DNA of 64,000 bases, taken from contig CAYLQM010000001.1 of NCBI GenBank assembly GCA_964386095.1, forward strand, positions 4,372 to 68,371. Direction: 5' to 3'. The translations under genes and the position numbers were made by a program. The notes beneath the pieces were generated by a model. It made no database searches. It saw nothing but the letters and a program-made list of their open reading frames with translations, and was not told where the DNA came from. Positions 7,644 through 58,642 of the stretch are shown piece after piece. Each line of letters opens with the position of its first letter. Position 1 is the stretch's first letter. The DNA is from an uncultured Methanosarcinales archaeon. Lineage in GTDB: Archaea > Nanobdellota > Nanobdellia > Woesearchaeales > JASKKU01.

Positions 7644-7769
7644 ACTTTTTTCGGCCGCTGGCGCATATTTAAAGGTATCGGTTTGCAGTCCTGAATTTTG
7701 GTTGATGCTGTTAAAATCCACAAAACAAAGAGATAGGACATTACGTTCAGAAGCGGTTGATTAAACAGT

Positions 7770-10682
7770 TTAATGTTTGACTTCCTTTAACCTGTTGACG
7801 AGGAACCTGACAAGTTTGGGATTTAATAAGTTTCCTTTGTTTTGAATGATATCGTAAACCCAAAGTATAAATTTCTCATCAAATTTGTTGTATCCATCAA
7901 TTAATTCCATCATTTTTCGTTTTTGATCCGCGGTTGCATTGATTTTGTCAGTTACTGCAATGAATTCAAGCTTCATCATTTCCCTGTTTTCTTCTTCTTC
8001 AAACTCTTTTTGCTCTTCCAATTCTTTCCAGAATTTATCGTAGGAAAAGCTTTCTTTCAATGTTTCCGCATCAATATTTTTATTCTTATATCTCCTGGAT
8101 ATGTCTGCTAGAATCTTTTGGTGCAATTCTTTGAGAAACTTTAAACGATCCTCCATTCTGAATATGTCTGTTTTACCCTCAAGGACCATCTTTGTTGCGA
8201 AAGGGCTTGGGAACGGAAGATTAACTTGTTCAATCTTAACTTTTCCATCTCGGATGCTTTTGAATACCTTGATAGCATTTTCAATGTCCATTAGGTCTTC
8301 AAGCACTTCTCGTTTGGCTTCCTTCAAGATAGGAAATCCGTTGAAATTCTCCATAAGATATCTCAATAATCTTTGAGAAGAGAACTGTTGCCTTGAAACG
8401 CTCTTAGTGCGTCCTTTGTAATTTCTTAGAATCATTAATCCCCTAACAGCGCAATTTCTGAATCTTCTCTTTAGCACTTCAGTGTTTTCTATAGCTTTCT
8501 CCATAAGTTTTCTTATGTTCTGCAAAGCAAGCGATTCAAGAGGTTTGCCCAAGTTGAGCTTTCTTTCTGAAGAAATGTAAAAACCGTTGTCTGTAATCCC
8601 TATGTTGAGCTTGGTTTTATTTTTTACATAGAGATAAAATGCGACTGCTCTGGAAAGAACATCATTGACCCTTCTTCCGTACATTGTGTGAAATACGGCA
8701 AAATGTTGTTGTTCGTCATTGAATGTTTCAACTATGATTCTTTTGTCGTGCGGTATCTTTGAGAACATGAACTGTTCATACATGTAACTGTATGTTGCAA
8801 AAGCGGCATTTTCATCAACATAAAGGTAATCTTTTATGAATTTCAGAATCTCCTTCTTGTCCTTCTTTTGTTCAAACAATTCAGTGATATACCTTCGGAA
8901 CTTTGAGATATCTAAAGCAATATCAAAGCTTAAGGGAAGCATTTCAGATATCCATGATGGAATTGTGGGTGGCCTACCTATGCTTGTTTTGACTACAGCA
9001 GTATTTCCCCGACTATACCTGAACTCATATGTGCTTCCTCCAAGAACAAAAACATCGCCGGGCCTCAATCTTTCCAGGAAAGCTTCATCAAGGTAACCTA
9101 TAACCCTGTTTCCAAGTTTAACCCTTATTCGCGCTTCATCTGGAATTGTTCCCACATTCGTCATGAAGAGGACTCTGGACAACATTCCTCTTGCTTTTAG
9201 ACTATTGTCCTCAAACCTGACTGCTTTTGCATAAACATTTCTCTCTTCCAAAGACAAACTTTCTCCTGTTAAATATCCTATAACTGAATTAAAATCTTCT
9301 CTTTTTAGTTTGTGATAACTGAAAGAACCCCTTATGATTTCGTAAAGTTGGTCCTGTAGGATGCTTTCATTTATTAAAAACCCGTAAACCATCTGGCTTA
9401 AAACATCTAACGCATTTGTTGGAATATGAATCTTGTCAATTTTCTTTTCAATTGCGTCTTTTAGGATGATGGAACATTCAATCAAATCATCTCTATCTAA
9501 GGTGACAAGTCTTCCTTTGGTTACATTATGCAATTGATGGCCACTCCTTCCGCATCTTTGCAATGCACGGGAAACTGATTTGGGACTGGATAATAAAACA
9601 ACGATGTCAATATAACCAATATCTATTCCGAGTTCTAAAGATGTGGAAGAAACAACGCATTTTAACTTTCCTTTTCTTAATTTGTCTTCAACATTTAATC
9701 TGATTTCTTTAGATAATGAACTGTGATGTGCGGCTATGGTATTGTCATTGTAATTTTGTGGGAACATTGTTTTGAGAGTGTCCACGACCCTTTCGGTTGA
9801 AGCTCGCGTATTGGTGAAAATTAGAGTTGTCTTATGTTCTTGAATTATGTTGTGGAGCAAATTATATAAGGCAGTGTGTTGGGTATGGTAATCTGTGTAG
9901 ATATAATCTTTTACGGGGCTAATTACTTTTAAGTCGAGTTGTTTTATGAACTGCACATCAACAATCTTGCAATCCCTTGGATTTTTTCCCTTAAAACCAA
10001 CCAGGTATTTGGCAACCTCTTCAATAGGGGAAACCGTAGCGGATAATCCCACGCGCGTTATGGAATAGTTGTTTAGCCGGTCTAAAAATTCAAGCGCTAA
10101 AGAGAGCATTGTGCCTCTTTTGTTCTCAGCTAAAGCGTGAATTTCATCAATAATTGCCCAGTCTATATTGGTCAGTTTTTCTCTAAATTTTTTTGAACTT
10201 AAAACAATGGAGAGGGTTTCGGGGGTAGTAATTAAAATGTGGGGCGGTTTTTTTAACATTCGCGATTTTTCTGAAGCGGAAGTGTCTCCGGTTCTGGTGG
10301 CTATTCTGATTTTCTGAATTTTTTTTGAATGCTTCTCGAAGAGTCCTTCAATTTCGTTAAGCGGTTGCTTTAAATTAAACTCAATATCATAATTTAATGC
10401 TCTTAATGGACTCACATAGATTGCGTAAATTTTGTCTTCAAGTATCCCCTTGTCGGCAGAATCAACAAGTTCATTGATTATCGAAAGAAATGCTGTAAGG
10501 GTCTTGGTGGCACCGGTTGGTGCTGAAATCAGTATGTTGTTTCGGGAATGCACTTCTAAGATTCCATACCTCTGGGGAAGTGAGAACTCCTTGAATTTAG
10601 AAAAGAACCATTCCTTAACAACAGGATGCAACACCCGAAGGATGTCCTCTTTTTTATCAGGATGTTTCTTTAAAATAACCAT
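7770..10682 (-). CDS. lhr: Lhr-like large ATP-dependent DEAD/DEAH-box helicase
   Basis: 970 aa. Q/motif I region ISAPTGATKTL, motif II DEIHAL, motif VI QRCGRSGH. There is a ~450-aa Lhr-core-type C-terminal extension after the two RecA domains. Confidence 0.75.
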   Translation of the reverse strand: MVILKKHPDKKEDILRVLHPVVKEWFFSKFKEFSLPQRYGILEVHSRNNILISAPTGATKTLTAFLSIINELVDSADKGILEDKIYAIYVSPLRALNYDIEFNLKQPLNEIEGLFEKHSKKIQKIRIATRTGDTSASEKSRMLKKPPHILITTPETLSIVLSSKKFREKLTNIDWAIIDEIHALAENKRGTMLSLALEFLDRLNNYSITRVGLSATVSPIEEVAKYLVGFKGKNPRDCKIVDVQFIKQLDLKVISPVKDYIYTDYHTQHTALYNLLHNIIQEHKTTLIFTNTRASTERVVDTLKTMFPQNYNDNTIAAHHSSLSKEIRLNVEDKLRKGKLKCVVSSTSLELGIDIGYIDIVVLLSSPKSVSRALQRCGRSGHQLHNVTKGRLVTLDRDDLIECSIILKDAIEKKIDKIHIPTNALDVLSQMVYGFLINESILQDQLYEIIRGSFSYHKLKREDFNSVIGYLTGESLSLEERNVYAKAVRFEDNSLKARGMLSRVLFMTNVGTIPDEARIRVKLGNRVIGYLDEAFLERLRPGDVFVLGGSTYEFRYSRGNTAVVKTSIGRPPTIPSWISEMLPLSFDIALDISKFRRYITELFEQKKDKKEILKFIKDYLYVDENAAFATYSYMYEQFMFSKIPHDKRIIVETFNDEQQHFAVFHTMYGRRVNDVLSRAVAFYLYVKNKTKLNIGITDNGFYISSERKLNLGKPLESLALQNIRKLMEKAIENTEVLKRRFRNCAVRGLMILRNYKGRTKSVSRQQFSSQRLLRYLMENFNGFPILKEAKREVLEDLMDIENAIKVFKSIRDGKVKIEQVNLPFPSPFATKMVLEGKTDIFRMEDRLKFLKELHQKILADISRRYKNKNIDAETLKESFSYDKFWKELEEQKEFEEEENREMMKLEFIAVTDKINATADQKRKMMELIDGYNKFDEKFILWVYDIIQNKGNLLNPKLVRFLVNRLKEVKH

Positions 10683-10760
10683 ATTTTGGGAGAAATGTTA
10701 TCTTCTTTAAAAAATTAATCAAGTATGCATATTGAACAAAAGTTTGAATTAAAGTAAATT

Positions 10761-11576
10761 CTAAATTAAAGCGAGTGGTTCAATCTTCACAGAATTGGGA
10801 AGCTCGCCAAAATCACAATCTTTGCAAGCAGCATCTAAGGGTATGTAACCATCTTTGTTTTCATATCTGGAAGGATTTTTCAGTTTAATTTCTATGAAGA
10901 TGTGATTCTTTAAAAGCAGGTATCTTGATTCTATGCCTATGTGGGTGAACAAGGAAGCTAAAAGGACGCTTATGCCGTCGCAGTCTGCGGAACCTGATTT
11001 AAGCGTTATTTGAGGCGGTTCAATAAATTCTGTTTTTACTGGATCAGGAATGTATTGGATATTGTCCCTGACAAAAAAGTATATTGCCTTGGCATAACAT
11101 AATTCATTGTTGCCTTTTTTATACGGGCAGACCTGTGAAGCAATGTAATCGGCAATTGTTTTCAGTTCTGGTGAAATTCGCGTTCGATGTATTAATAGCT
11201 GTTCAACGATGCTTTGATTTGTTAACAACGGTTTAATGCTTAGATTGCTTAGGAATCCTTTGTCGTTGAGTTCTTTTAATGTAGGGATTTTCAGGGGTTT
11301 GTTTTCAGGTTCAAATATAGAATTTGGAATTATGAAAAAAACAATTATGGAAACAGCAATCAGAATCGCAATTAATCTAACAAAGAACCCTTTGTTTTCA
11401 TCAAGCGTTTGAGAGTTTTCGCTGTCTTCTGGAAAAATGGGCGTACTTTCTTCGTAGATTATAGAGGTATCTTTTGGTGCTCTGATTTGATTGTTCTTTT
11501 CATTCAATCCCCTTTCTTTTGAATCTTTCATTTTTGGATTTTTGACAAGGAATAGTGTATTCTCATAAGTCCACAA
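10761..11576 (-). CDS. Membrane-anchored transglutaminase-like cysteine protease domain protein
   Basis: N-terminal TM (LIAILIAVSIIVFFII). Transglutaminase-core signature GSADCDGISVLLASLFTHIGIESRY, with downstream His and Asp candidates. Confidence 0.6.
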   Translation of the reverse strand: MWTYENTLFLVKNPKMKDSKERGLNEKNNQIRAPKDTSIIYEESTPIFPEDSENSQTLDENKGFFVRLIAILIAVSIIVFFIIPNSIFEPENKPLKIPTLKELNDKGFLSNLSIKPLLTNQSIVEQLLIHRTRISPELKTIADYIASQVCPYKKGNNELCYAKAIYFFVRDNIQYIPDPVKTEFIEPPQITLKSGSADCDGISVLLASLFTHIGIESRYLLLKNHIFIEIKLKNPSRYENKDGYIPLDAACKDCDFGELPNSVKIEPLALI

Positions 11577-23204: not shown

Positions 23205-25694
23205 TTATGTTGTATAACTGTCTCCTAAAATTACTGGATCATCGAATCCAAGTTTTGGAAGCGAGGCAAAATATGGTGAGTTAAGATAATAATTATACAC
23301 TTTCGATTGATAAAGATTTGCCTTTTCTAATACTTCCTTAAAGTAAGCCGCTGTTTCAAGAACCCTTCGTGGATAAAATCTGCTTTGATCGGGAATGTGA
23401 ATGTCTGCTGCTGCAGCTGCATTCTCCAATGTTTCTCCAAGCTTTTCCTTGTCCCTCGCTCCCGGATATTTTTCTAAGAAATTATCTACATTAGATGGTC
23501 CCCAGTTGTATGCGAGTAATGCAACACCTAAGTTGTTATTATATCTTTTTATTAAATTTTTTAGGTATCGCACTGCAACAACCATATTTGGTTCATATTT
23601 GTTCATATCCTCCCACTCGTATCCTTCACCAAAGTCTTCCCAAACTGCATCGGAAACTTGACAGACTCCCTTGATGTTTTTAAGTCCTTCTGAGTTAGTT
23701 ATTTTGATTTCTTTGCCGTTTTCTTTTTCACCCAAACGATGCTTCTGTTGGATGCCACCTTCAATTGTTGCCAAGCCCATGAGAAGTGCAGGATCAAAAT
23801 TATTTTCCTCTGCAACCTTCTGAGCTGTAGAATAAAGTATTGGATAATCACCGATCAATTCAGCATAGGTTTTGCTAACCTTGTTGTTAGAAAATTCTGT
23901 TTTTTCTATTTTTTCAACGAATTCTTCATCAGCCTTTGCTGAGAGAGTTTTTTTTTTAATTACTTTAACCGCGGGACTTGAGATTTCGTATTCATATTTT
24001 ATTTTGGTATATACTGGCAGTACGGCTTTATAACTTTCAGAAAGAATGTTGCTGTCAATAGTCATAATGCATGGCAAAATGTATTGGTCGCCTTGTTTTA
24101 TTAAGTTCACTTCCTCAATACTTTCGAAGCAATGATAAGCTCCTTGTAGTGTGCTTGTGTCGTCAAAACCGAAATCCGAGAAACAATTCTTTCCTGTTTC
24201 TTCAAGGCCACAATCTGATAGATGTATTTCTTTTGGAGCAAGTATCTTTACATTCTTAATCTCCTTAAATCTTCCACTTCCACTGTTTCTTACGGAAAGG
24301 ATAAACATGTGTTTGTTGTTTTTGGTTGAAATTTGAATGGGATATTCACTCATTTCCCCATTGGCAGATAATCCTACAACAACAGGACCTGAAGAACTCT
24401 TGGTTGATTGGGGTCCATTGAGAAAACCCGATTCTTCAAGATAAGGATTTTTGTTTTGAGCAATGTATTCATATAACTTTTGCTGTTGCATAAAGTAAAA
24501 TTCTCGACTTGCAAATGTGGAAAATTCATAAATTACGTTGGCCTTTAGGGAAGCTTGATAGCTCTTATCAAAAGATATAGCTTCTGAAGGGATCTCGCAA
24601 TTAAGGATTTGGTAACTTAAGGCATTTCTCAAAGGAGCTGGCTCGTCGCAATTAATGCTGTAGCCATTGTCAATGTCTCCAGAAATGGAGTCTATTCTAA
24701 TGGTGTACTTCTCGGTGTTATTAAGGATTTCTCTGGGAATTTGATTCTGACTAGCGCCCTTAAATGATGCACTTATTTTTAACTCAATTTTCTCATTTTC
24801 ATCTACATAAGGCGGCAAAGGTAATGCTGAGGTTATTTTCACTTCTAAAGCTTGTTGCTTGGCGTCATATTGTCCTCTGTCTGATTGGAATGGAGCAATT
24901 CTTTCATTGATCCAGCTTCCGTTTATTAGTCTCTTGATTGGATTAATTATTGAATTTTTAAAGGAACCCCAGAAAGCTTTTGAACCTTCTTTCAAGCGTT
25001 CTGTGATGCTTTTCATCGCAATTTTAGCTTGAATTTGTTCTCCAGGATTGAGCCCTGGAACAGATATCTGCGATGAAATCCTTTGAATATAAGGCCAGGA
25101 CATAAGTGCGAGGAATATTAAAAAAATGGCTATAATCTTTCTAACAAAAGGTGTTGTGGAAGGTCTCTTATAGCTTGAATACAATAGTGCGAACAAGGGC
25201 CATATTGGTAGTAATATCCTGTTCACCAAGAAATATGGATTATTAATCATTCTTGACAGAAGGGGAAAGAAATATACTTCAATCACAAGAATTAGACCAA
25301 AAGCAATGATGTTTCTAAACAGGGCTGTCAAAAAGCCTTCTCCTTCATTCCTCAAAATTGAAAAAATCATTACGAAAAATAGAGCTATCCAAAAATGAAT
25401 TGCATAAACTGAGGAAATGTAAGAATAACCAAACATGATCCCGTCGATGAAAATGTGCTGGAAAATCGTAATTAGAATGAACAGGTCGTAAACATCATAT
25501 GGAAAAAAAGAGCGCAAGAACGCGAACAATCCTTTCCCAACTTTCTTTCCCATTCCAAAACCAACCCCCCCAATTACTCCTGCTGCAAGCTGAGGGCTTA
25601 TCATTCGTGGTGTGTTGAGAAAACCTCCGATTTTTTTAAAAGCGCTACCAATTACGCTCCCAAGTCCTTTAAGAAGACTAGCCTTCTCGCTCAT
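23205..25694 (-). CDS. Large polytopic membrane protein (829 aa) with a C-terminal lytic-transglycosylase (SLT/GH23 lysozyme-like) domain
   Basis: ~7 N-terminal TM helices, a large non-cytoplasmic middle region, and a C-terminal SLT-like segment: LLMGLATIEGGIQQ...SEGLKNIKGVCQVSDAVWEDF...VAVRYLKNLIKRY...LLAYNWGPSNV. Compare the SLT signature ES...GLMQ...AYNaGpG. Confidence 0.5.
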   Translation of the reverse strand: MSEKASLLKGLGSVIGSAFKKIGGFLNTPRMISPQLAAGVIGGVGFGMGKKVGKGLFAFLRSFFPYDVYDLFILITIFQHIFIDGIMFGYSYISSVYAIHFWIALFFVMIFSILRNEGEGFLTALFRNIIAFGLILVIEVYFFPLLSRMINNPYFLVNRILLPIWPLFALLYSSYKRPSTTPFVRKIIAIFLIFLALMSWPYIQRISSQISVPGLNPGEQIQAKIAMKSITERLKEGSKAFWGSFKNSIINPIKRLINGSWINERIAPFQSDRGQYDAKQQALEVKITSALPLPPYVDENEKIELKISASFKGASQNQIPREILNNTEKYTIRIDSISGDIDNGYSINCDEPAPLRNALSYQILNCEIPSEAISFDKSYQASLKANVIYEFSTFASREFYFMQQQKLYEYIAQNKNPYLEESGFLNGPQSTKSSSGPVVVGLSANGEMSEYPIQISTKNNKHMFILSVRNSGSGRFKEIKNVKILAPKEIHLSDCGLEETGKNCFSDFGFDDTSTLQGAYHCFESIEEVNLIKQGDQYILPCIMTIDSNILSESYKAVLPVYTKIKYEYEISSPAVKVIKKKTLSAKADEEFVEKIEKTEFSNNKVSKTYAELIGDYPILYSTAQKVAEENNFDPALLMGLATIEGGIQQKHRLGEKENGKEIKITNSEGLKNIKGVCQVSDAVWEDFGEGYEWEDMNKYEPNMVVAVRYLKNLIKRYNNNLGVALLAYNWGPSNVDNFLEKYPGARDKEKLGETLENAAAAADIHIPDQSRFYPRRVLETAAYFKEVLEKANLYQSKVYNYYLNSPYFASLPKLGFDDPVILGDSYTT

Positions 25695-48964: not shown

Positions 48965-50644
48965 ATGAAACGGGAATTGCCTGATATCATTGAAAAATAT
49001 GCTCTTAAAAATGCCATAGAACATAATGGCAAAGCAAATCCAAAAGCGCTGATTGGGAAAGTGATTGCAGAATTTCCCGAATATAAAACCAAAATTCGCG
49101 AGATAATGCCTTTCATCGAACAAAAGGCATCCGAAATAAATGATTTATCTCTGGAAGAACAGAAGCAGATTGCCCAGGAAAAGCATCCTGAAATATTTGT
49201 GAAAGAGAAAAAGAAGAAGGACCTGCCGGAGTTGCCTAACGCAGTGAAAGGAAAGGTTGTTACAAGGATTCCCCCTGAACCGAGCAAGTACGCTCATATT
49301 GGCCATGCTTTATCCTTTCTCATAAATTACATCTATGCCAGGAGGTACGAAGGCAAGAGTATTCTCAGGTTTGAAGATACCAACCCTGAAAAATCTGCTC
49401 AAGAGTTTGTTGATGCAATGCTAAATGATGTGCAAAATTATTTGGGAATCAAGCCTGATAAGATTATGTTTGCATCGGATGACATGCCCAAGTTTATTGA
49501 AGCAGCTGTTGAATTGATTAAACGTGGAAAGGCTTATGTTTGTTTTTGTGATCAGCAAACAATGAAGGAAAATCGGCAGAAAGGTCTGGAGTGCAGTTGC
49601 CGCAGTAAAAGTGTTGAGAAAAACCTAAAAGATTGGCAAGGAATGACGAATGGAAAATACAGTGCTGGGAAATGCACTTTAAGATTGAAGATTGATATGA
49701 AACATAAAAATTATGTTATGAGAGACCCGGTAATCTTCAGGATAGTCGAGCATGAACATTACAAGCACGGGCAAAAATACCGCGTTTGGCCAATGTATGA
49801 TTTTGAGAATTCTTTAGAGGATGCGTGGAATGGCGTAACTCACATACTTAGGAGCAATGAATTTGGAAAAATGCGCGAGGAATTGCAGAATTATATTAAG
49901 GAATTGTTCGGTTATCCAAAACCTTTTGTTAAACAATACGGCAGATTTAATGTAATGGGTTCAACAACAAAAGGCAGAGAAATAAGAGAATTGATTGAAA
50001 AGGGAGAATTAATTGGATGGGATGATCCAAGATTGGTTACATTAAAAGCTTTGAAACGAAGGGGTATACAACGGGAAGCTCTTTATGAAATGGTTAAAAA
50101 GATCGGATTATCATCGCAAATAACTAACATTGATTGGAATTTCATAAGCGCTTTTAACCGCAGGATTGTTGATAAATGTGCCAAGAGATTTATGTTAATC
50201 AGAAATCCTGTTAAGATTAGAATTAAGGGGGCTGAACCTCACGAAATAAAGATAAGACTTCATCCTGATGTTGATTACGGGTTAAAAACTCTTAAGGTTA
50301 ATGAAGAATTTTACCTCGAGAAAGAAGACTTTGAAAGCATAAGAGACAACGAAGTTGTAAGATTAATGGAATGCTTAAACTTCTATAAAAAGGGCGATGA
50401 ATTTTATTTTCATTCTTACGATTATAATGGATTTAAAGGCAAGGGTAACAAGATTATACATTGGTTGCCTGTTGAGGATTCGCAAGTTTTAAAAGTTAAA
50501 ATAATGATGCCTGATGCAAAAAAGATTGATGCATTATGTGAATTTAATGTTAAAGATGTTAAAGTGGATGAAATCGTTCAATTTGAGAGGTTTGGATTTG
50601 CTCGAAAAGATTCTGAGTTGGAGTTTTGGTATTCGCACAAGTGA
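48965..50644 (+). CDS. gltX: Glutamyl-tRNA synthetase (archaeal/eukaryotic-type class I Glx-RS)
   Basis: HIGH motif HIGHALSF and a Glx-RS catalytic core (RFEDTNPE). 559 aa with an anticodon-binding beta-barrel C-terminus. Confidence 0.85.
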   Translation: MKRELPDIIEKYALKNAIEHNGKANPKALIGKVIAEFPEYKTKIREIMPFIEQKASEINDLSLEEQKQIAQEKHPEIFVKEKKKKDLPELPNAVKGKVVTRIPPEPSKYAHIGHALSFLINYIYARRYEGKSILRFEDTNPEKSAQEFVDAMLNDVQNYLGIKPDKIMFASDDMPKFIEAAVELIKRGKAYVCFCDQQTMKENRQKGLECSCRSKSVEKNLKDWQGMTNGKYSAGKCTLRLKIDMKHKNYVMRDPVIFRIVEHEHYKHGQKYRVWPMYDFENSLEDAWNGVTHILRSNEFGKMREELQNYIKELFGYPKPFVKQYGRFNVMGSTTKGREIRELIEKGELIGWDDPRLVTLKALKRRGIQREALYEMVKKIGLSSQITNIDWNFISAFNRRIVDKCAKRFMLIRNPVKIRIKGAEPHEIKIRLHPDVDYGLKTLKVNEEFYLEKEDFESIRDNEVVRLMECLNFYKKGDEFYFHSYDYNGFKGKGNKIIHWLPVEDSQVLKVKIMMPDAKKIDALCEFNVKDVKVDEIVQFERFGFARKDSELEFWYSHK

Positions 50645-51306
50645 AAATGTTAGCGAAAGTTTTTAAAGAAAATCTAAAGTCAATGCTCTCGGGGATTTTG
50701 CTTGGTTTGTTGGTGTTTATCTTTTTCATTTTATCTTCGTGTAGCCATGCTGATTTCAGTAATGATAATCCTAAACTGTTGAACGGTAAGAGGTGCGTTT
50801 TGATTATTGCTCCAGAAAATTTTAGGGATGAGGAGTTAACAGTCACCAAGGATGTATTAATTGAGAACGGAGCATATGTAGATGTTGCTTCAGTTAAGAA
50901 GGGAGTTGTTAAAGGGATGTTGGGTTACTCAATACAGGTTGATAAAACTGTTTCAGAACTTTCTGTTGATGACTTTGATTGCGTTGTTATTGTTGGAGGT
51001 TCTGGCGCTCCTGTTTTGCTTAAGCATGATGAAGTGCTTGATTTTGTTAAGAGAAGCAATGAGTTAAATAAGACTATCGGCGCGATTTGTTTAGGCCCCA
51101 TGGTTTTGGCAAAGGCAGGAGTTCTTGAAAGCAAAGATGCAACTGTTTTCAAGAGCAAAGAATCTCTTGATGTTTTTAAGGAGAATAATGTTAATTTCGT
51201 TGATAAGCCTTTGGTTGAAATCGGCAACATAATTACTGCAAATGGTCCGGATTATGCAGCAGATTTTGCGTATGCTTTGGTCAGATTGTTGAGCGAGAAT
51301 AATTAA
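50626..51306 (+). CDS. DJ-1/PfpI-family protein with an N-terminal signal/lipobox (start more likely the Met at 50647)
   Basis: Catalytic-Cys context IGAICLGPMVLAKAG. N-terminal hydrophobic region ends in LSSC (lipobox-like). Confidence 0.7.
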   Translation: MVFAQVKMLAKVFKENLKSMLSGILLGLLVFIFFILSSCSHADFSNDNPKLLNGKRCVLIIAPENFRDEELTVTKDVLIENGAYVDVASVKKGVVKGMLGYSIQVDKTVSELSVDDFDCVVIVGGSGAPVLLKHDEVLDFVKRSNELNKTIGAICLGPMVLAKAGVLESKDATVFKSKESLDVFKENNVNFVDKPLVEIGNIITANGPDYAADFAYALVRLLSENN

Positions 51307-51753: not shown

Positions 51754-51936
51754 ATGATTGGCATAACTGAATTATTGATAATCTTGCTGATAATTTTAAT
51801 TCTTTTTGGGCCAAAGAGACTGCCTGAATTGGCAAGAGCTATAGGAAAATCGGTTCATGAATTCAAAAAGGCTTCGAGGGGAGAATACGCCGAAGATGAA
51901 AAGCCCAAAAAGAGAAACACAAAAAAGAAAAAGTAA
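51754..51936 (+). CDS. tatA: Twin-arginine translocase subunit TatA
   Basis: TM LLIILLIILILFGPKRLPELARAIGKSVHEFKKA matches the TatA/E consensus. Confidence 0.8.
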   Translation: MIGITELLIILLIILILFGPKRLPELARAIGKSVHEFKKASRGEYAEDEKPKKRNTKKKK

Positions 51937-52627
51937 TCTTATCAAGAGACCTCTCGCTGAACACTTGGAAGAGTTCAGATTTAGGATGCTCTTTTCCCTT
52001 TTTTTCTTTATGATAGTTTCACTAGTTTTATTTTTTGTCTCCCCTTATGTTTTAAAAAGAGTAATAAATGATTTCATAAATAATTCCGTGAAAATTGTTT
52101 CTTTAAGTCCAACGGAGGTAATACTGTCGGAAATAAGAATTGCTCTGTTTCTTTCTTTTATTGCATCACTGCCTGTGTTTATTTATCACTTATTCAAGTT
52201 CGTTAAGCCGGCAGTTAAAGATAATGAAAAACCTATGTTTGTTCTGTTCATTCTGTCCAGCCCTTTATTGTTTCTGCTTGGAAGCTGGTTTGCTTACTTT
52301 GTTGTATTGAAGTTTGCAATTGCCTTTTTTTCAAAAATCTCTTTGGTTGTAGTGAATTACAACTTGTGGAGTATTAAGGAATTGACCAAATTCATTCTGA
52401 ATTTTTGCTTCTCTTTTGGGCTCGTGTTTGAATTGCCTCTCATAATGTTCTTTTTAAATGCCTTAGGTTTGTTAAGTAAAGATGACTTTAAAAAATACCG
52501 ACCTTTTATTTATGTGATTATTTTTGTTCTCGCAGCCGTAATTACCCCGCCAGATGTTATCACCCAGTTGATTTTAGCTTTCCCGTTAATAATTCTTTAT
52601 GAGTTGTCCTTGCTTTTTATTAGATGA
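51857..52627 (+). CDS. tatC: Twin-arginine translocase subunit TatC (true start probably an internal Met, e.g. 51896)
   Basis: LAEHLEEFRFRM near the N-terminus and 6 TM helices. The track ORF overlaps tatA by 80 bp in another frame. Confidence 0.75.
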   Translation: MNSKRLRGENTPKMKSPKRETQKRKSNLIKRPLAEHLEEFRFRMLFSLFFFMIVSLVLFFVSPYVLKRVINDFINNSVKIVSLSPTEVILSEIRIALFLSFIASLPVFIYHLFKFVKPAVKDNEKPMFVLFILSSPLLFLLGSWFAYFVVLKFAIAFFSKISLVVVNYNLWSIKELTKFILNFCFSFGLVFELPLIMFFLNALGLLSKDDFKKYRPFIYVIIFVLAAVITPPDVITQLILAFPLIILYELSLLFIR

Positions 52628-52629
52628 TT

Positions 52630-54330
52630 TTATTTTTTATTTTCTGAGAAAACATGAGCCCTGTAAACATACACCTCTGTAGAGGAATCTTTCCAACAAT
52701 AAGGGTTCATGCCGCCTTTTATGCAAAGTTGGGTTAAAAACGATTCCTTATCAGGCAACTGCTCCCATACTTGAGGCAGGTAGGTGCTTTGCCTGAAACC
52801 TCTTTTCAATATTACGCCATGAACATTTGGAATAAGCTTGTTTTTCAAATCTTCGGGAGACGAAAATGTAAGTCTTGTTGGTACTGAGAGTGCAGAGATT
52901 TCTATGGTAATATCTTTTAATTCATCTGTTGAAACAGGGTTAAACCTGGGATCATTCACAGCGGCGTTTATTGCGTTGTCCATAACGCATTTATAGAGTT
53001 CTTCTTGAGGTAATATGTGCCCAATGCAACCTCTCAGCATTCCGTTCTTTTCAAGCGTTACAAAACAACCCATCTTTTGTTTTAATTTGTCAGATACCTG
53101 TGATTTATCTACTTTGGGTCTTCTCCCTGTTGCGAGATAAGTTTCAATGGTTTCACGGGCTAATTTCAGCAAAAATTCTTTTTCTTCAGGCGTTAATTCA
53201 ATAACACTATCTTCCGGGTTAGAGAATGCAATTGCCATGTAGCTCACCGAGTTTGTGAAATCGTTTAAGATGTTGCCAGATGCATCATATTTGATTAAGG
53301 TTGTATTTAATTGTTTGTCTTTTATTATGTTTAAAAGTAGGATTATTGGATTCCTGCCACAGATTGTATCTTGGGTTCTTTGGATGAAATTGTAAAAATT
53401 CAATGCGTCCTTGCTTTTAATACTTTCAAAAGCTTGCAAATCAAGTTTTTTAATGTTTTCCTTAACATTATCTGTAAATGGCAAATAACCATAATTTGCA
53501 CCGTAATGAGTGAAATCCGAGCTAACAACTATCAAACTATCATTATCGATGTATTCGTTTAGGGTTTTTGCAATCTCCTGCAAATCAGCATAACTGTTCA
53601 AGTTTCCAACCAACAAAGGAACGATTTCAAAGTCATTTAAACAGTACTGTAAGAAAGGAAGCTCTATTTCGATAGCATGTTCTTTTGAATGCATTTCAGG
53701 AACAAATGTGAAAAGAGGTTTTTTTAATAATTCTTTAACAATGTTTGAGACTTCAATTTTTCCGAGCGGGGTTCTGTAATGAGTAAAGTTTCCCACAGAA
53801 ATCCCCCGAAAGCTTGCATAATGAGATGGCGCCAAAATGAATACTTTCTGGTAGCTTTTATTGCAAATTGTGTTAAAAGCTGTTGAAGCGGTTTGACCGG
53901 AGAAACGCCAACCAGCATGAGGCACTATTATGGCAAAAATGTTTTCTTTTTTTAGTTTGCTGATTGTATTATTAATTTCTTGGATTTCCTTATTGTTTTT
54001 AAAGAAGGTTTCAATCTCGTTAATTACAGCTTCTTTTGTTCTGGGATACCATGAACCTGAGATTGCTGGTTCTCTTACAATTTCTTTAAACTTCGTTGTT
54101 TGTTTATTTGCCAAACCCGTTTCAGTTTTGTTGCCTAATTTCGTGCGAAATACAAGAATAGCAATAATTATGATTAATATCACAAGGGAAATTTTGAAAA
54201 TCGTTTTAATTTCTATAATTTGTTTTTTGCCTGATGTTTTGCTTTTATTCTTTCTTTTTGTCTTTTTGGCGGGTTTGCGAATTTTTGTCATCCTACCATC
54301 GCCCTGGAATTTCAGTATTGCAATATTCAC
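52630..54330 (-). CDS. Memo-like + AMMECR1 fusion protein with an N-terminal membrane anchor (AmmeMemoRadiSam components A+B fused)
   Basis: Basic N-terminal tail and one TM (ISLVILIIIIAILVF). Memo/UPF0103 motifs (SGSWYP..., IVPHAGWRFSGQTA). C-terminal AMMECR1 domain (MGCFVTLEKNGMLRGCIGHILP...VNDPRF). Confidence 0.75.
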   Translation of the reverse strand: MNIAILKFQGDGRMTKIRKPAKKTKRKNKSKTSGKKQIIEIKTIFKISLVILIIIIAILVFRTKLGNKTETGLANKQTTKFKEIVREPAISGSWYPRTKEAVINEIETFFKNNKEIQEINNTISKLKKENIFAIIVPHAGWRFSGQTASTAFNTICNKSYQKVFILAPSHYASFRGISVGNFTHYRTPLGKIEVSNIVKELLKKPLFTFVPEMHSKEHAIEIELPFLQYCLNDFEIVPLLVGNLNSYADLQEIAKTLNEYIDNDSLIVVSSDFTHYGANYGYLPFTDNVKENIKKLDLQAFESIKSKDALNFYNFIQRTQDTICGRNPIILLLNIIKDKQLNTTLIKYDASGNILNDFTNSVSYMAIAFSNPEDSVIELTPEEKEFLLKLARETIETYLATGRRPKVDKSQVSDKLKQKMGCFVTLEKNGMLRGCIGHILPQEELYKCVMDNAINAAVNDPRFNPVSTDELKDITIEISALSVPTRLTFSSPEDLKNKLIPNVHGVILKRGFRQSTYLPQVWEQLPDKESFLTQLCIKGGMNPYCWKDSSTEVYVYRAHVFSENKK

Positions 54331-55501
54331 ATTTTCCGTTTTTAATATGATTTTGAATTATGAGAAATCCTTTTCGTTCGATCAATAATTTGTTGCAATT
54401 TGGGCAATAAGTATGCTCGCCATCATGACCTGGCACATTTCCAATGTAAACAAATTTTAATCCTTGTTCTAAAGCAATCTTTCTCGCCCGGGTGAGAGTT
54501 TCAACAGGCGTGGGCGGTACATTTTGCAGTTTGTATTCTGGATGAAATCTGGAGAAATGTAAGGGGGTATTTTCAAACCCATTGTCATACAGCCATTTCG
54601 CCATCTTTTTAATCATATCAAGATCGTCAGTCCAATTTGGTATGATTAAATTGGTTATCTCTAACCAAACCCCTTCCTCATTTAACACTTTGAGCGTTCG
54701 TAAAACTGGGTCCAAGGTTCCGCCATTGAGCTTCTGATAGGTGCTGTTGCTAAAACTTTTCAAGTCAATATTGGCGGCGTCAAGAAACTTTGTTAGAGTT
54801 CTCAAAGGTTTTTCATTGATATATCCAGCGCTGATTAATACATTTTTAATCCCTTGTTCTCTTGCGAGTTTAGCAATATCGTAAGTGTATTCATAAAATA
54901 CAATGGGTTCAGAGTAAGTGTAGGCAATTGATGTGCAGTTGTTTTTCGCGGCTTCTTCAACAACTTGTTGTGACGAAAGATTATAGCTTTGCAGGTCTTC
55001 CGGATTTGATTGAGAAATCTCCCAATTCTGACAGTTTAAACATCTAAGATTGCAACCGGCAGTTGCTATTGAAAAGGCTGCGCTTTCAGGATAAAAATGA
55101 AACAACGGTTTTTTTTCAATGGGGTCAATATGCAATGCAACTGGTTTTCCATAAACTAAGGAATATAAGGTATTGTTGTGATTTTCTCTTACTCTGCAGA
55201 TTCCTCTACTGCCTTCCTGAAGAAAACATTCCCTTGGACATAACAAACATTTGACTCCAAAATCATATTTCTCATAAAACATTGCTTCTTTAAGAGAATC
55301 GAGTTTCATTTTGTCACTCTCTTTAGAAGTATTAGTTAAAAGACTATTTAAACTTTTAGAACCCAACAAGGAGTTAAACCCGTAAAGAGCCACGGCTAAA
55401 CTACCCAAACCAAGCACACTCTTTTTTATGAACTCTCTCCTGTCAACTTTTTTGGAGAGGATTTTTGGAATTCTGTTTTTAGATTTTTCTTTTTTGGGCA
55501 T
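54293..55501 (-). CDS. AmmeMemoRadiSam-system radical SAM enzyme with an N-terminal twin-arginine signal peptide
   Basis: CNLRCLNCQNWEIS is a CxxxCxxC radical-SAM motif. KCLLCPRECFLQEGSRGICRVREN is the family-typical N-terminal Cys cluster. The first ~50 aa read DRREFIKKSVLGLGSLAVALYGFNSLLGSKS, i.e. the Tat consensus S/T-R-R-x-F-L-K, then an h-region and an AxA-like site. Confidence 0.8.
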   Translation of the reverse strand: MPKKEKSKNRIPKILSKKVDRREFIKKSVLGLGSLAVALYGFNSLLGSKSLNSLLTNTSKESDKMKLDSLKEAMFYEKYDFGVKCLLCPRECFLQEGSRGICRVRENHNNTLYSLVYGKPVALHIDPIEKKPLFHFYPESAAFSIATAGCNLRCLNCQNWEISQSNPEDLQSYNLSSQQVVEEAAKNNCTSIAYTYSEPIVFYEYTYDIAKLAREQGIKNVLISAGYINEKPLRTLTKFLDAANIDLKSFSNSTYQKLNGGTLDPVLRTLKVLNEEGVWLEITNLIIPNWTDDLDMIKKMAKWLYDNGFENTPLHFSRFHPEYKLQNVPPTPVETLTRARKIALEQGLKFVYIGNVPGHDGEHTYCPNCNKLLIERKGFLIIQNHIKNGKCEYCNTEIPGRW

Positions 55502-55694
55502 ATTTTATTTTTTATGTGATTTGTTTTTAAAAATCTTATTGAACTTATGTAGGTTAAGGATGTTTAAGATAGATTGTTTTTCAGTTCTTTCGTAAGTGAA
55601 GGTATGTTGGAGTTTTAAGGATAGAAGAAATTAAGGTTAAGGTTTCCCCAGCTTTAACTGCTCTTCTACTGAAGTCATACCAGAAAATAGGGGA

Positions 55695-56447
55695 TTATTT
55701 TGTAAACTTTTTAACAGAGCAGCACCTTTTTAGCATTCTCCAGATTAAACCAACTGGACAAAAATGATTGCACCAAAATCTTGGAATTACCATTGAGAAC
55801 AATACCAATATGCCAATTATAACTGAGCCGAGTTTAACAGAGTAGGATGGCGTTAGGAAAATTCTTGTAATGAATTCGAGTTTCTGGGGGATAATGAGCA
55901 ATGAAAAGAATGCCAGCAGGAAAAATGTAAGAAAGATATAACCCATTGCATTTAAAATTAAACTTATTTTCTTGTTTTTATCAGGATTTATTTGTTTAAT
56001 TTTTAAACTTCTGCCAACAAGGTTTAAACTGTCTTGAACTTTTCCAACAGGGCACAAGTTGGAACACCATGTTCTTGATTCCAAGTTCATTAACACTGCG
56101 CTTGATAAAATGATATTCTGCATTTGGCCAAAAGGGCATTTTGCAGGACAAACCGAACAGAAAACATAAGGCATTTTAAACCTGCATTTAAACAGCGGGG
56201 CGGCAACAACAGGAATTAACAAGAATTGACCGAGGTTTCCGGTTTTATGCTTCAAATTCAATGCCTTTTTTGAAACTTTGAACATAAGAATTCCAAAGAC
56301 AAACAAGAATAGAATGAGGATTGTTAAATAAACACCTCTTTTGTAGAACAATCTGTTGATTGAGGCGTTTTTAAAGAAAAGAAGCAAGAGAATGAAAAAG
56401 AGAAGGTTGTAACTCAAACCCATCCAAAACTTTTTGTTATTAACCAT
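55695..56447 (-). CDS. Cys-rich polytopic membrane protein (3 x CxxxCP-type motifs), possible membrane redox/Fe-S protein
   Basis: CSVCPAKCPFG, CSNLCPVGK and CNHFCPVG between TM helices. 250 aa. Confidence 0.45.
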   Translation of the reverse strand: MVNNKKFWMGLSYNLLFFILLLLFFKNASINRLFYKRGVYLTILILFLFVFGILMFKVSKKALNLKHKTGNLGQFLLIPVVAAPLFKCRFKMPYVFCSVCPAKCPFGQMQNIILSSAVLMNLESRTWCSNLCPVGKVQDSLNLVGRSLKIKQINPDKNKKISLILNAMGYIFLTFFLLAFFSLLIIPQKLEFITRIFLTPSYSVKLGSVIIGILVLFSMVIPRFWCNHFCPVGLIWRMLKRCCSVKKFTK

Positions 56448-56467: not shown

Positions 56468-58642
56468 TTAATTTTTAAACTTAACGAATAAAGTTGTGCA
56501 AAACTTTAATGCTGCCAAGATTAGACTTGTTTGCAATAAACCGAATAATGGGATTAAGATTAACGCTGTGATTATTGCTCCAAACAAGGCTCCCATAAAA
56601 TCCAAGCTGTATAATTCAGCCGAGGTTTTGGACTCGTTTTCAAAACTGATTTTAGCAACTGCGGGGAATTCAAGTCCTATAAGAAAATAAATTATAAACA
56701 AAGAAGACGAGAGAAGCAGTGTGGTTAGTGCTTGGGAATTAATGCTGCTTAATAACTTTATGATTAATGGCAGTAATATTAAAGCAATTGCGATTAAAAG
56801 CTCTGCATTTACGAGTGTTTTATTGTTTAATTTCTTCAGATTTCTGTATGCAAATAAACCGCCTGAAGTCATGCCGAGCAGAGCGGCTGAAATCAGCAAT
56901 CCTAAAGAGTAATACAATGTGCCGGCAATAATCTGAAATGAGAGGACTGCAACAATTTCAATGGCGGAAGCAACTATGCCTGATGAGAAGATAAGCACCC
57001 TTTTTGAATTGTTGCCCACAAACAAGATTAAATATCCTATGAATGAGCTGATAATTAGAAAAAACAAAACCCAGAATTTCAAACTAATCATCTGCAACCA
57101 GTTTAAAGAATAGAGAAAAAAAGCTCTTGGTTTAAAATTAAGATTTGGGGGTGTTTCCATATTTGTTTCTGAATTGAGCTGGGCAATTCTGTCGGGCGTT
57201 AATTGGCCTGTTAGATAGTATTCATTTACAAACAGATTAGAAATGTTTCTTTCTTTAACTTTGTTGATCAGTTGTACCGGCGATGTTGAAACATTGCTGT
57301 TTGAAGCAATAAAATAAACACGAGAACCAGGAATTAATTTTACAAATTTAAAGCAGGGATTTAAAGATTGTTTTATTGTTGAATAAAGCAGTTTTGTTTT
57401 CTCATTTAAGTAATTAGAGTAAACTCCTAAAGGAAATATTACTATGCTTCTGTTATTTGTTCTTTTTTTAAGCAAATGGAAGAATTCCTGCGAATAAAAT
57501 CTGTTGAATTCCAGGCTTGCAGGTTCGGGGAGATTTAATATGATCACATCAAAGGTTTTGTTCGTTTCTTTTAGAAATTGTAAGGCATCTCTTGAAATTG
57601 TTTGAATTTTGTCATTAGGTGTTAAGTTGAAATAAGTGTTTAGGATTTCAGTTAAGGTTTTGTCAGGTTCGATGATATAAACTTCCTTAATATTGTATTT
57701 GAGAACTTCATTAACCAAATCAGGATTGCCGTTCGGGACGGTGAATATTGTTTTAGGATTATCAAGCTGTAGCATAGCATAGTGCACAAGTTCTTCACTG
57801 CTTTGCTTGTCGTTTGATGAATAAATCAATTGACCGTTCTGATAAAGATTGTGTTGATTAATGATTTTAGTTAAAATGTAATTCCCAAACTTTGAGTTTT
57901 TTGTTAAAATTATCTGCTGGCCTGGGAACCCTTTTGACAGCGAAAAAGTTTCCAAATTTAGTCTAAGAAGCAAAATCGTTAAGAGTATTATGAAAGTAAT
58001 TAACAATACCTGTTTTGCTCTTTTTTTCAAATGAATCATTGAAATCATTATGAGATTAAGCGCTAGGGCGATTATAGTAATGGTTGTGTTATTCAACAAA
58101 TAACCCAAGAAAAAAGTAAAAATCAATGCGCCGAATACATTGCCCAAGTTATCAACATAGTAGCTTTTGGAAATTGACTTGTATCTTTGGTTAAGCGCTT
58201 TGGGAATGCAACTTAATAAACAGCCGTACAAAATGCAGAACGGAAACAAAATCAACAATGAAAACAAGAATAAACTTTGCAGGGCAACGAGAGTGCCGAT
58301 GGGGAACAAGAGGTTTCTTAACCATCTGATTGCAATGATTGTTGCTAATGGCAGAATGCCTAATGAAATATGAAAACTTAAAAGTTTCTTATCAGAAATC
58401 TTAAACCTTTTACATAGGTTTGCTCCGATTGAAAGCAAAATTAACCAGCTGACAAAAATGGTGATGTAAGAGAATTCATTGCCGTAAAAAGAATCCATAA
58501 GTTCTTTAATAATCAGAAGTTGCGTTAATGTTGCAGTTAAAGCTATAATGAATAAGGAAAAAATGTATTTCTTGTTTTTGTTTTTAATTAATACATGGTT
58601 TTGTCTTTTTTTTGGTTCCATAACTCGAAAGGTTTGAGACAT
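56468..58642 (-). CDS. Membrane protein with an embedded spermidine-synthase-like (aminopropyl/methyltransferase-fold) domain
   Basis: >12 TM helices flank a soluble segment: KEVYIIEPDKTLTEILNTYF...DKIQTISRDALQFLKETNKTFDVIILNLPEPASLEFNRFYSQEFFHLLKK (SpeE-like). The Gly-rich GGGDGG motif is degenerate (VPNGNPD). Confidence 0.55.
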   Translation of the reverse strand: MSQTFRVMEPKKRQNHVLIKNKNKKYIFSLFIIALTATLTQLLIIKELMDSFYGNEFSYITIFVSWLILLSIGANLCKRFKISDKKLLSFHISLGILPLATIIAIRWLRNLLFPIGTLVALQSLFLFSLLILFPFCILYGCLLSCIPKALNQRYKSISKSYYVDNLGNVFGALIFTFFLGYLLNNTTITIIALALNLIMISMIHLKKRAKQVLLITFIILLTILLLRLNLETFSLSKGFPGQQIILTKNSKFGNYILTKIINQHNLYQNGQLIYSSNDKQSSEELVHYAMLQLDNPKTIFTVPNGNPDLVNEVLKYNIKEVYIIEPDKTLTEILNTYFNLTPNDKIQTISRDALQFLKETNKTFDVIILNLPEPASLEFNRFYSQEFFHLLKKRTNNRSIVIFPLGVYSNYLNEKTKLLYSTIKQSLNPCFKFVKLIPGSRVYFIASNSNVSTSPVQLINKVKERNISNLFVNEYYLTGQLTPDRIAQLNSETNMETPPNLNFKPRAFFLYSLNWLQMISLKFWVLFFLIISSFIGYLILFVGNNSKRVLIFSSGIVASAIEIVAVLSFQIIAGTLYYSLGLLISAALLGMTSGGLFAYRNLKKLNNKTLVNAELLIAIALILLPLIIKLLSSINSQALTTLLLSSSLFIIYFLIGLEFPAVAKISFENESKTSAELYSLDFMGALFGAIITALILIPLFGLLQTSLILAALKFCTTLFVKFKN

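Follow-up and report, generated by a model that had tools for sequence, protein, structure and literature searches.

A conserved twin-arginine leader on an archaeal radical SAM enzyme of the Memo/AMMECR1-linked family suggests a system that works on the outer face of the cell membrane

Radical SAM (rSAM) enzymes are regarded as strictly cytoplasmic, because they need SAM, a low-potential electron donor and oxygen-sensitive clusters. Since an archaeal rSAM gene at positions 54293..55501 on the minus strand of a 64-kb stretch of DNA (contig CAYLQM010000001.1, assembly GCA_964386095.1; hereafter the window) appears to begin with a twin-arginine (Tat) signal, we addressed whether this leader is real, whether it is shared by related proteins, and whether its context is consistent with export. 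A preliminary description had read it as a textbook Tat signal peptide on an AmmeMemoRadiSam-family enzyme, implying a highly unusual topology. Our analysis supports the central part of that reading, although several of its details require correction and export itself remains an inference from sequence.

Anatomy and coding status of the leader

The open reading frame begins with ATG and encodes 402 amino acids. It scores 390.1 bits against the family model TIGR04337 (cutoff 220, E 7.5e-117), and the match covers only residues 80-402, leaving about 79 N-terminal residues outside the family model. The catalytic core (54296..55264, minus strand; codons 80-402) contains an N-terminal 4-Cys site, a CX3CX2C motif at C150/C154/C157 and a C-terminal 4-Cys site. 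In 106 sequences C85, C102, C150, C154, C157, C366 and C391 are invariant, and C88, C92, C369 and C394 are at least 90% conserved. The core also matches Pfam Radical_SAM with 66.5 bits. An AF2 model has a pLDDT of ~98 for residues 70-402, and its best structural match is the pyruvate formate-lyase activating enzyme (PFL-AE, PDB 3CB8), with a TM of 0.82 on the target and an rmsd of 2.6 Å.

The leader starts with a Lys-rich n-region of 19 codons (55445..55501, minus strand), MPKKEKSKNRIPKILSKKV, which is predicted to be disordered (pLDDT 52-63). This is followed by the motif D-R-R-E-F-I-K at residues 20-26 (55424..55444, minus strand) and by an uncharged stretch of 21 residues, 29-49 (55355..55417, minus strand), SVLGLGSLAVALYGFNSLLGS, after which the basic residue K50 sits in the c-region. 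There are 12 K/R in residues 1-28. The h-region is only weakly hydrophobic, with a 19-residue Kyte-Doolittle mean of 1.56, compared with 3.04 for the anchor of the partner protein by the same measure. It lies in a helix (residues 21-46) that the AF2 model places apart from the globular core. Among the 192 ORFs of at least 50 aa in the window, this is the only real gene with such an N-terminus.

The leader is nevertheless not quite textbook. The curated Tat-signal model TIGR01409 gives 12.9 bits against a cutoff of 16.7, and Pfam TAT_signal (PF10518) gives no hit, so that these models cannot confirm the leader and we relied instead on motif conservation and context. The residue at position -1 is D rather than S/T, and by inspection no convincing small-x-small (AxA) cleavage site follows the h-region in the window protein or in its DPANN relatives, which suggests that the segment is probably a signal-anchor here. 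The overlap with the downstream gene noted in the preliminary description is probably not real, as it exists only if that gene starts at GTG 54330. The ATG at 54291 lies 1 nt after the TAG stop (54295-54293) and matches the gene call in locus L085, a syntenic relative.

We next asked whether the leader is translated. Against the 77%-identical relative L085, codons 1-50 have a pN of 0.16 with a pS of 0.73 (saturated), similar to the core, where pN is 0.12, indicating that the leader is coding and under purifying selection. Both genes start MPKK downstream of a conserved A/T box, ATTTTTAAAAA (55524..55534, minus strand, 23-33 nt upstream of the ATG), which is found at the same position in the otherwise diverged upstream region of L085. 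This box is a candidate archaeal TATA box, and its reading as a promoter for a leaderless or short-leader mRNA is inference. A scan for sigma-70 promoters and terminators was at chance level and does not apply to an archaeon, and a search of Rfam found only two tRNAs in the window.

Conservation of the leader among related loci

The leader is a family-wide feature, not a peculiarity of this ORF. In 25 diverse homologues the only conserved leader positions are R22, F24 and K26; in our alignment R22 and F24 are invariant and K26 is at least 90% conserved, while the rest of the leader varies. The conserved core across phyla can be written [KR]-R-x-F-[LIV]-K, and DPANN relatives have the exact S-R-R-E-F-L-K. 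Of 83 related loci (numbered with the prefix L), from DPANN archaea, Bacteroidota, Ignavibacteriota, Desulfobacterota and Omnitrophota, about 64 carry versions of the motif: 39 KR, 15 RR and 6 RK Tat-like leaders, plus 4 that combine the motif with a very hydrophobic h-region. A further 10 have hydrophobic leaders without the motif and 9 have no leader. One cultured carrier is Mangrovibacterium marinum DSM 28823 (locus L014). The mean Kyte-Doolittle value is 1.55 in Tat-like leaders against 2.86 in the hydrophobic class, and a basic residue follows the h-region. Among 150 representatives clustered at 50% identity, 28 were classed as Tat-like and about four more by eye, most of them RR and many with AxA sites, whereas about half have no leader. 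The KR variants give no hit with TIGR01409, and the relative P0005 scores 16.5 bits. No lipobox is conserved in the Bacteroidota leaders, arguing against a lipoprotein reading.

Gene context, partner protein and domain fusions

The gene immediately downstream (52630..54291, minus strand) encodes a fusion of Memo (system protein B; TIGR04336, 224 bits) and AMMECR1 (protein A; TIGR04335, 210 bits). It has an N-terminal basic stretch with 13 K/R followed by a strongly hydrophobic signal-anchor. A Memo-AMMECR1 gene was found in 50 of the 83 related loci, many of whose contigs are truncated, and the partner has a Sec, lipoprotein or anchor N-terminus in 45 of 46 loci, as in L001, where it reads MKSVVRFLLFVFLPAITVSSVYA and then QD. 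The single exception pairs with a leaderless rSAM.

Convergent with this gene and ending 2 nt from its 3' end is tatC (51857..52627, plus strand; PF00902, 185.7 bits; TIGR00945, 167 bits against a cutoff of 132.7), the true start of which is uncertain; the ORF as listed overlaps tatA (51754..51936, plus strand; PF02416, 78.9 bits; TIGR01411, 71 bits against a cutoff of 53.9). The tatA-tatC genes lie within 2.5 kb of the rSAM/Memo-AMMECR1 genes in 6 of 8 DPANN loci (the window, L085, L003, L086, L087 and L088), although the other flanking genes differ.

Upstream of the rSAM gene is a gene (55695..56447, minus strand) for a NapH-like Fe-S membrane protein, which matches PF12801 (Fer4_5) with 41.3 bits against a cutoff of 22 and falls far below the NapH and NosR equivalog cutoffs. 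Four TMs are predicted, with an N-in/C-in topology, and it is a candidate transmembrane electron donor. It is adjacent to the rSAM gene in the DPANN loci L003, L054, L086, L088 and L089, and is fused to the rSAM domain in the homologues P0123, P0126 and P0137. The next gene (56468..58642, minus strand) encodes a membrane protein of roughly 14 TMs with a central spermidine-synthase-like domain (residues ~231-524; hits to PF01564 and NF037959, 'fused MFS/spermidine synthase'). It neighbours the rSAM gene in 62 of 83 loci, and a family-level positive-inside analysis puts its SpeE-like domain outside; the window copy has a degenerate glycine loop. All of our TM and topology assignments rest on a simple hydropathy and positive-inside script.

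Domain fusions among the homologues also place the rSAM domain with extracytosolic or electron-conduit modules. FMN_bind is joined to rSAM with no TM between the two domains and with an intact D..SGAT flavinylation motif in P0142 and P0144; FMN_bind is followed by six TMs of NapH type and then rSAM in P0123 and P0137; DsbD_2 is fused to rSAM in P0124 and P0140; and CBM_11-rSAM and beta-propeller-rSAM fusions lie behind signal peptides. DsbD_2, FMN_bind and NapH genes are also adjacent in other loci, FMN_bind for example in L052, L065, L074 and L075. NapH-like and DsbD systems with FMN-binding domains have been described as electron routes to extracytosolic enzymes (PMC8238504), but the flavinylation papers we searched do not mention rSAM, Memo or AMMECR1.

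A model for export and its alternatives

Taken together, we favour, with moderate confidence, a model in which the gene encodes a PFL-activase-like rSAM enzyme of the AmmeMemoRadiSam family with a functional twin-arginine targeting leader. The enzyme would fold and receive its Fe-S and other metal centres in the cytoplasm, and would then be recognised by the neighbouring TatA/TatC machinery and moved across the membrane, where in this DPANN archaeon it probably stays tethered to the outer face by its uncleaved h-region. There it would work with the Memo-AMMECR1 protein, held by a Sec-type signal-anchor, with the extracytoplasmic spermidine-synthase-like domain, and with the NapH-like protein, which would supply electrons across the membrane. 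Tat dependence, the topology and the electron route are inferred, as above all is the source of SAM: there is no obvious way to supply SAM outside the membrane and none is known, although it could be exported by the MFS-like membrane domain or carried out bound to the folded enzyme. A membrane or envelope molecule, or the partner protein itself, is a guess at the substrate. The taxa that carry the system appear to be mostly anaerobic, and an exposed Fe-S enzyme is therefore feasible.

Some observations fit less easily. In certain close or related systems the rSAM is leaderless while the partner keeps its export signal, namely L090, at 85% identity and with an in-frame stop upstream, and the Thermodesulfovibrionales loci L061, L062, L071 and L077; the two proteins therefore may not need to share a compartment. 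Omnitrophota-type members have very hydrophobic, Sec-like leaders, which is hard to reconcile with cytoplasmic Fe-S loading. One fusion, P0131, has an anchor with no N-terminal charge and KK after the helix, suggesting an N-out/C-in orientation and a cytoplasm-facing enzyme. These features could indicate that the N-terminal segment is only a membrane tether and the RR/KR motif part of a basic flank, with the catalytic domain on the cytoplasmic face, a reading that would also remove the SAM-supply problem. We consider this unlikely, since the 12 K/R that precede the h-region, against four in its C-terminal flanks, give N-in/C-out by the positive-inside rule, and translocation of a +10 N-tail is unlikely. 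Nor does a plain anchor explain why R-x-F-[LIV]-K is conserved while the rest of the leader drifts, or the weak hydrophobicity, the tatAC linkage and the fusions to FMN_bind without an intervening TM.

Insertion or export by Sec/SRP, with metal centres loaded or repaired outside and the cysteines perhaps kept reduced by adjacent CcdA/DsbD-like proteins, appears less likely still. It would accommodate the KR and RK variants, the motif-free hydrophobic leaders, the sub-threshold TIGR01409 score and the DsbD_2 gene that is adjacent wherever the leader is Sec-like (L040, L043, L047, L050, L055, L063, L076 and L083). However, we are not aware of any extracytoplasmic Fe-S assembly system, and the window protein has RR, a weak h-region and a basic c-region, which are Sec-avoidance features, with tatAC beside the operon. 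It is similarly doubtful that the motif is a vestigial leader serving chaperone binding, proofreading or membrane docking without translocation, as in the respiratory nitrate reductase NarG. The low score, the lack of an AxA site on inspection and the leaderless relatives are compatible with this, but remnant leaders seem to lack a proper h-region, whereas here it is intact and conserved in character across phyla, many relatives have complete RR signals with AxA sites, and the exported partner and electron-conduit context point to real export. Finally, translation from an internal Met (M65 or M73) just before KEAMFYEK, raised in the preliminary description as an alternative start, is rejected on selection and conservation grounds. 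L090 does naturally start 5 residues before KEAMFYEK with its own GAGG ribosome-binding site, but the internal Mets of the window protein are absent from P0002 and from most homologues, and the leader is conserved at protein level from archaea to bacteria.

The canonical, cytoplasmic AmmeMemoRadiSam system shares the three family models, the gene adjacency and the conserved rSAM core with its CX3CX2C motif and flanking Cys sites. Here, in addition, the rSAM has a ~79-residue Tat-type leader, Memo and AMMECR1 are fused behind a signal-anchor, and the cluster includes the 14-TM SpeE-like protein, the NapH-like protein and tatAC. Published predictions for the family concern RNA base modification (PMC2034487). 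No family member has a solved structure, and a PDB sequence search returns only PFL-AE (3CB8/3C8F; phmmer E 1e-11, ~21% identity), which has the same partial-barrel fold and acts on a protein substrate but is a ~245-aa cytoplasmic enzyme with one cluster, no leader and no flanking 4-Cys sites; no glycyl-radical enzyme is encoded nearby. The arrangement of a PF12801 protein next to, or fused with, a cofactor-bearing enzyme with a twin-arginine leader recalls NapGH, NosR-NosZ and PceC/RdhC-reductive dehalogenase, although in the text we could search the served enzyme has never been an rSAM enzyme, and the window NapH-like protein lacks an FMN_bind domain of its own. The proposed signal-anchor resembles that of bacterial and plastid Rieske Fe-S proteins, in which an N-terminal twin-arginine (or natural KR) motif appears to be followed by an uncleaved helix that tethers a pre-folded Fe-S domain to the outer face. 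The protein family and the chemistry differ, and Tat dependence, which to our knowledge has been shown experimentally for Rieske proteins, is only inferred here. We found no literature describing an exported rSAM enzyme, and none of the titles or abstracts of the six papers found with 'AmmeMemoRadiSam' concerned the system's mechanism or localisation, but we cannot exclude that the main comparative study of Memo-AMMECR1-rSAM contexts (Burroughs et al., 2019; PMC6664185) already noted signal peptides.

More tentatively, it is possible that a whole branch of the AmmeMemoRadiSam system, found in DPANN archaea and many anaerobic bacterial phyla, is an extracytoplasmic radical SAM machine. It would comprise a Tat-exported rSAM enzyme, an exported Memo-AMMECR1 protein, the outward-facing SpeE-like domain of a 14-TM protein and a dedicated NapH-, DsbD- or FMN-type electron conduit, together carrying out radical chemistry on a membrane or envelope substrate outside the cytoplasm. 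That would require either SAM export, with the MFS-like membrane domain as the candidate, or co-export of SAM bound to the folded enzyme.

A large, phylogenetically broad clade built for export would break the rule that rSAM enzymes are cytoplasmic, and would raise questions about how SAM and electrons reach the outer face of the membrane. The finding also bears on two disease-linked human proteins, MEMO1 and AMMECR1, whose prokaryotic relatives belong to this system and whose biochemical function is still unknown. A consistent location at the membrane or envelope narrows the search for the substrate.

The radical SAM gene and its leader

The ORF at 54293..55501 on the minus strand is exactly as given in the preliminary description, encoding a protein of 402 aa from an ATG start. 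A profile search showed that it matches the NCBIfam model for the AmmeMemoRadiSam system radical SAM (rSAM) enzyme (TIGR04337) with 390 bits against a cutoff of 220, and that this match covers only residues 80-402, so that about 79 residues precede the family core. The leader comprises a Lys-rich n-region with 12 K/R in the first 28 residues, the motif D-R-R-E-F-I-K at residues 20-26, a stretch of 21 uncharged residues (29-49) of modest hydrophobicity with a 19-residue Kyte-Doolittle mean of 1.56, and a basic residue, K50. Within the 64-kb window this is the only real gene with such an N-terminus. An AlphaFold2 model built on 106 homologues gives a very confident core, with pLDDT about 98 from residue 70 onwards, whereas the leader is predicted as a disordered tail followed by a separate helix at 21-46. 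The best structural match of the modelled core is pyruvate formate-lyase activating enzyme (3CB8, TM 0.82 on the target), which is also the only solved relative found by sequence. Eleven cysteines are conserved, comprising the CX3CX2C motif and a four-Cys site on each side of it, and the protein therefore carries several metal centres.

The window is archaeal and encodes GatD/GatE and CDC48, and the closest named homologues are from Woesearchaeota and Nanoarchaeota, which are DPANN archaea. It also encodes an 829-aa protein with a lytic transglycosylase (SLT) domain at 23205..25694 (-), a murein-degrading domain that could relate to an episymbiotic lifestyle. The archaeal enzyme is about 55-60% identical to proteins from Bacteroidales loci (L005-L038), and the gene cluster is shared across domains, which suggests inter-domain horizontal transfer of the whole module.

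We next addressed whether the leader is translated, and conclude that it most likely is. In a codon-by-codon comparison with a 77%-identical relative (locus L085), codons 1-50 have a pN of 0.16 while synonymous sites are saturated (pS 0.73), a constraint similar to that on the core, for which pN is 0.12. Both genes begin MPKK, and an ATTTTTAAAAA box lies 23-33 nt upstream in both, in otherwise diverged DNA; we infer that this might be an archaeal TATA box for a leaderless or short-leader transcript. The two internal Met codons, one of which had been put forward in the preliminary description as an alternative start, are not conserved. The preliminary description also reported an overlap with the downstream gene. 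However, that gene most likely starts at ATG 54291, 1 nt after the stop, as it does in L085, and the genes are tightly packed but probably do not overlap.

Comparative evidence for a Tat-type leader

The leader had been described as a textbook Tat signal peptide with an AxA-like site. The curated Tat-signal HMM TIGR01409 is the second of the two reported NCBIfam matches to the leader, and the only signal-peptide model among them, but it scores 12.9 bits against a cutoff of 16.7, and Pfam TAT_signal finds nothing. 'Textbook' is therefore too strong, and we see no convincing AxA cleavage site.

The comparative evidence is nevertheless strong. Nearly all of the best 120 homologues are 375-425 aa long and carry a leader, and in an alignment of 25 diverse members the only conserved leader positions are R22, F24 and K26, that is, the second arginine, the phenylalanine and the lysine of the Tat consensus. 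DPANN relatives have the exact S-R-R-E-F-L-K, while Bacteroidota and Ignavibacteriota have S/T-K-R-x-F-[ILV]-K and several Desulfobacterales have T-R-K-E-F-L-K. Tat substrates with natural KR leaders probably exist, and RK is likely to be partially tolerated. In 83 related loci we classified 39 KR, 15 RR and 6 RK leaders; four more carry the motif with a very hydrophobic h-region, 10 have hydrophobic leaders without the motif, and 9 have no leader. Among 150 representatives of clusters at 50% identity, 28 were classed as Tat-like, and about four more by eye. Most of these are RR and many have AxA sites, whereas roughly half of the representatives have no leader.

Gene neighbourhood and domain fusions

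The tatA and tatC genes, at 51754..52627 (+), lie convergent to the operon, and tatC ends 2 nt from the 3' end of the partner gene. The listed tatC ORF overlaps tatA by 80 nt, so its true start is uncertain. In 6 of 8 DPANN loci (the window, L085, L003, L086, L087 and L088), tatC and, wherever the locus extends far enough, tatA lie within about 2.5 kb of the rSAM/Memo-AMMECR1 genes, although the other flanking genes differ between loci; the exceptions are L089 and L054. This suggests that the Tat system there may serve mainly this enzyme. A DJ-1/PfpI-family protein encoded at 50626..51306 (+) has an N-terminal hydrophobic segment ending in a lipobox-like LSSC and is syntenic next to tatA in L085, and it may be another exported protein of the neighbourhood. 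In the DPANN locus L003 three genes lie between the rSAM and Memo-AMMECR1 genes (7276..11275), encoding an MFS transporter, a phosphopantetheinyl transferase and an Aas-like AMP-binding/acyltransferase, which hints at a link with lipid handling.

The partner, encoded at 52630..54291 (-), is a fusion of Memo and AMMECR1 behind a Lys-rich stretch and a strongly hydrophobic helix (KD 3.04). In related loci 45 of 46 evaluable partners have a Sec signal, a lipoprotein signal or an anchor, an example being MKSVVRFLLFVFLPAITVSSVYA|QD in locus L001. The one exception, in locus L078, also has a leaderless rSAM. The commonest neighbour, present in 62 of 83 loci, is a membrane protein of about 710 aa with a spermidine-synthase-like (SpeE-like) domain. 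A family-level hydropathy and positive-inside analysis, which like our other topology calls rests on a simple script, gives seven TMs on each side of that domain and places the domain outside. The family consensus keeps SGG..G and acidic nucleotide-binding residues, but the window copy, at 56468..58642 (-), has PNGNP and NLPEP in place of the glycine loop and the catalytic DxxDP, so it is not a canonical aminopropyltransferase.

Candidate electron conduits are also linked to the enzyme. A NapH-like Fer4_5 protein with four TMs sits just upstream of the rSAM gene in the window, and one also neighbours the rSAM gene in five other DPANN loci. In natural fusions (homologues P0123, P0126, P0137, P0124, P0140, P0142, P0144, P0128, P0129, P0127 and P0131) the rSAM domain is joined to FMN_bind, to FMN_bind plus a NapH-like module, to DsbD_2, to all three together, to a CBM_11 domain, to a beta-propeller, or to Memo-AMMECR1. 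In P0142 and P0144 no TM segment separates FMN_bind from the rSAM domain and the D..SGAT flavinylation motif is intact, whereas in P0123 and P0137 six TMs separate the two domains, which puts them on the same side of the membrane. Triple rSAM-AMMECR1-Memo fusions of about 1000-1150 aa without leaders also exist (for example P0192 and P0206). DsbD_2 genes, or DsbD_2-FMN_bind-NapH fusion genes, are adjacent to the rSAM gene in a dozen further loci. NapH-like and DsbD-like systems with FMN-binding domains have been described as modular electron routes to extracytosolic enzymes, most of whose client reactions are unknown, although that study does not mention radical SAM, Memo or AMMECR1 (PMC8238504).

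Alternative readings and proposed mechanism

Some of the data do not fit readily with export of the enzyme by Tat. A relative with 85% identity (locus L090, 1685..2695) has a naturally leaderless enzyme, with an in-frame stop 10 codons upstream and its own GAGG site; its partner keeps the anchor, while the SpeE-like and Fer4_5 genes are absent at the syntenic position, between the deaminase and the rSAM gene. Thermodesulfovibrionales loci likewise combine a leaderless rSAM with a lipoprotein-type partner, and the two proteins may therefore not need to share a compartment. Furthermore, the enzymes of eight loci that are mostly from Omnitrophota (L040, L043, L047, L050, L055, L063, L076 and L083) have very hydrophobic, Sec-like leaders, each with an adjacent CcdA/DsbD_2-like gene. 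Such leaders are hard to square with cytoplasmic Fe-S loading, and how an Fe-S enzyme would be matured after Sec export is unexplained. Of the alternatives, a plain membrane tether with the enzyme facing the cytoplasm is unlikely but the least improbable, Sec-dependent export and a vestigial Tat motif are each somewhat more doubtful, and an untranslated leader is very unlikely.

The protein is a member of the TIGR04337 family and has the defining features that could be tested. It differs from the canonical cytoplasmic system in the Tat-type leader on the rSAM enzyme, the fused and, by inference, exported partner, the membrane protein, and the electron conduit. The closest functional analogies are probably NapH-family proteins that serve Tat-exported enzymes, and Tat-dependent signal-anchors such as Rieske proteins. 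We found no paper describing an exported radical SAM enzyme, although this does not take in the key comparative study of the system (Burroughs et al. 2019).

We consider it more likely than not, on evidence that is inferred from sequence throughout, that the enzyme is loaded with its metal centres in the cytoplasm and is then moved by TatAC. No route for SAM to the outside is known, and the MFS-like membrane domain, or co-export of bound SAM, are guesses. In this archaeon the enzyme probably stays tethered by its uncleaved h-region on the outer face, where the Memo-AMMECR1 protein and the SpeE-like domain would also sit and where the NapH-like protein would feed it electrons. In diderm bacteria whose leaders carry AxA sites, the enzyme would be a soluble periplasmic protein.
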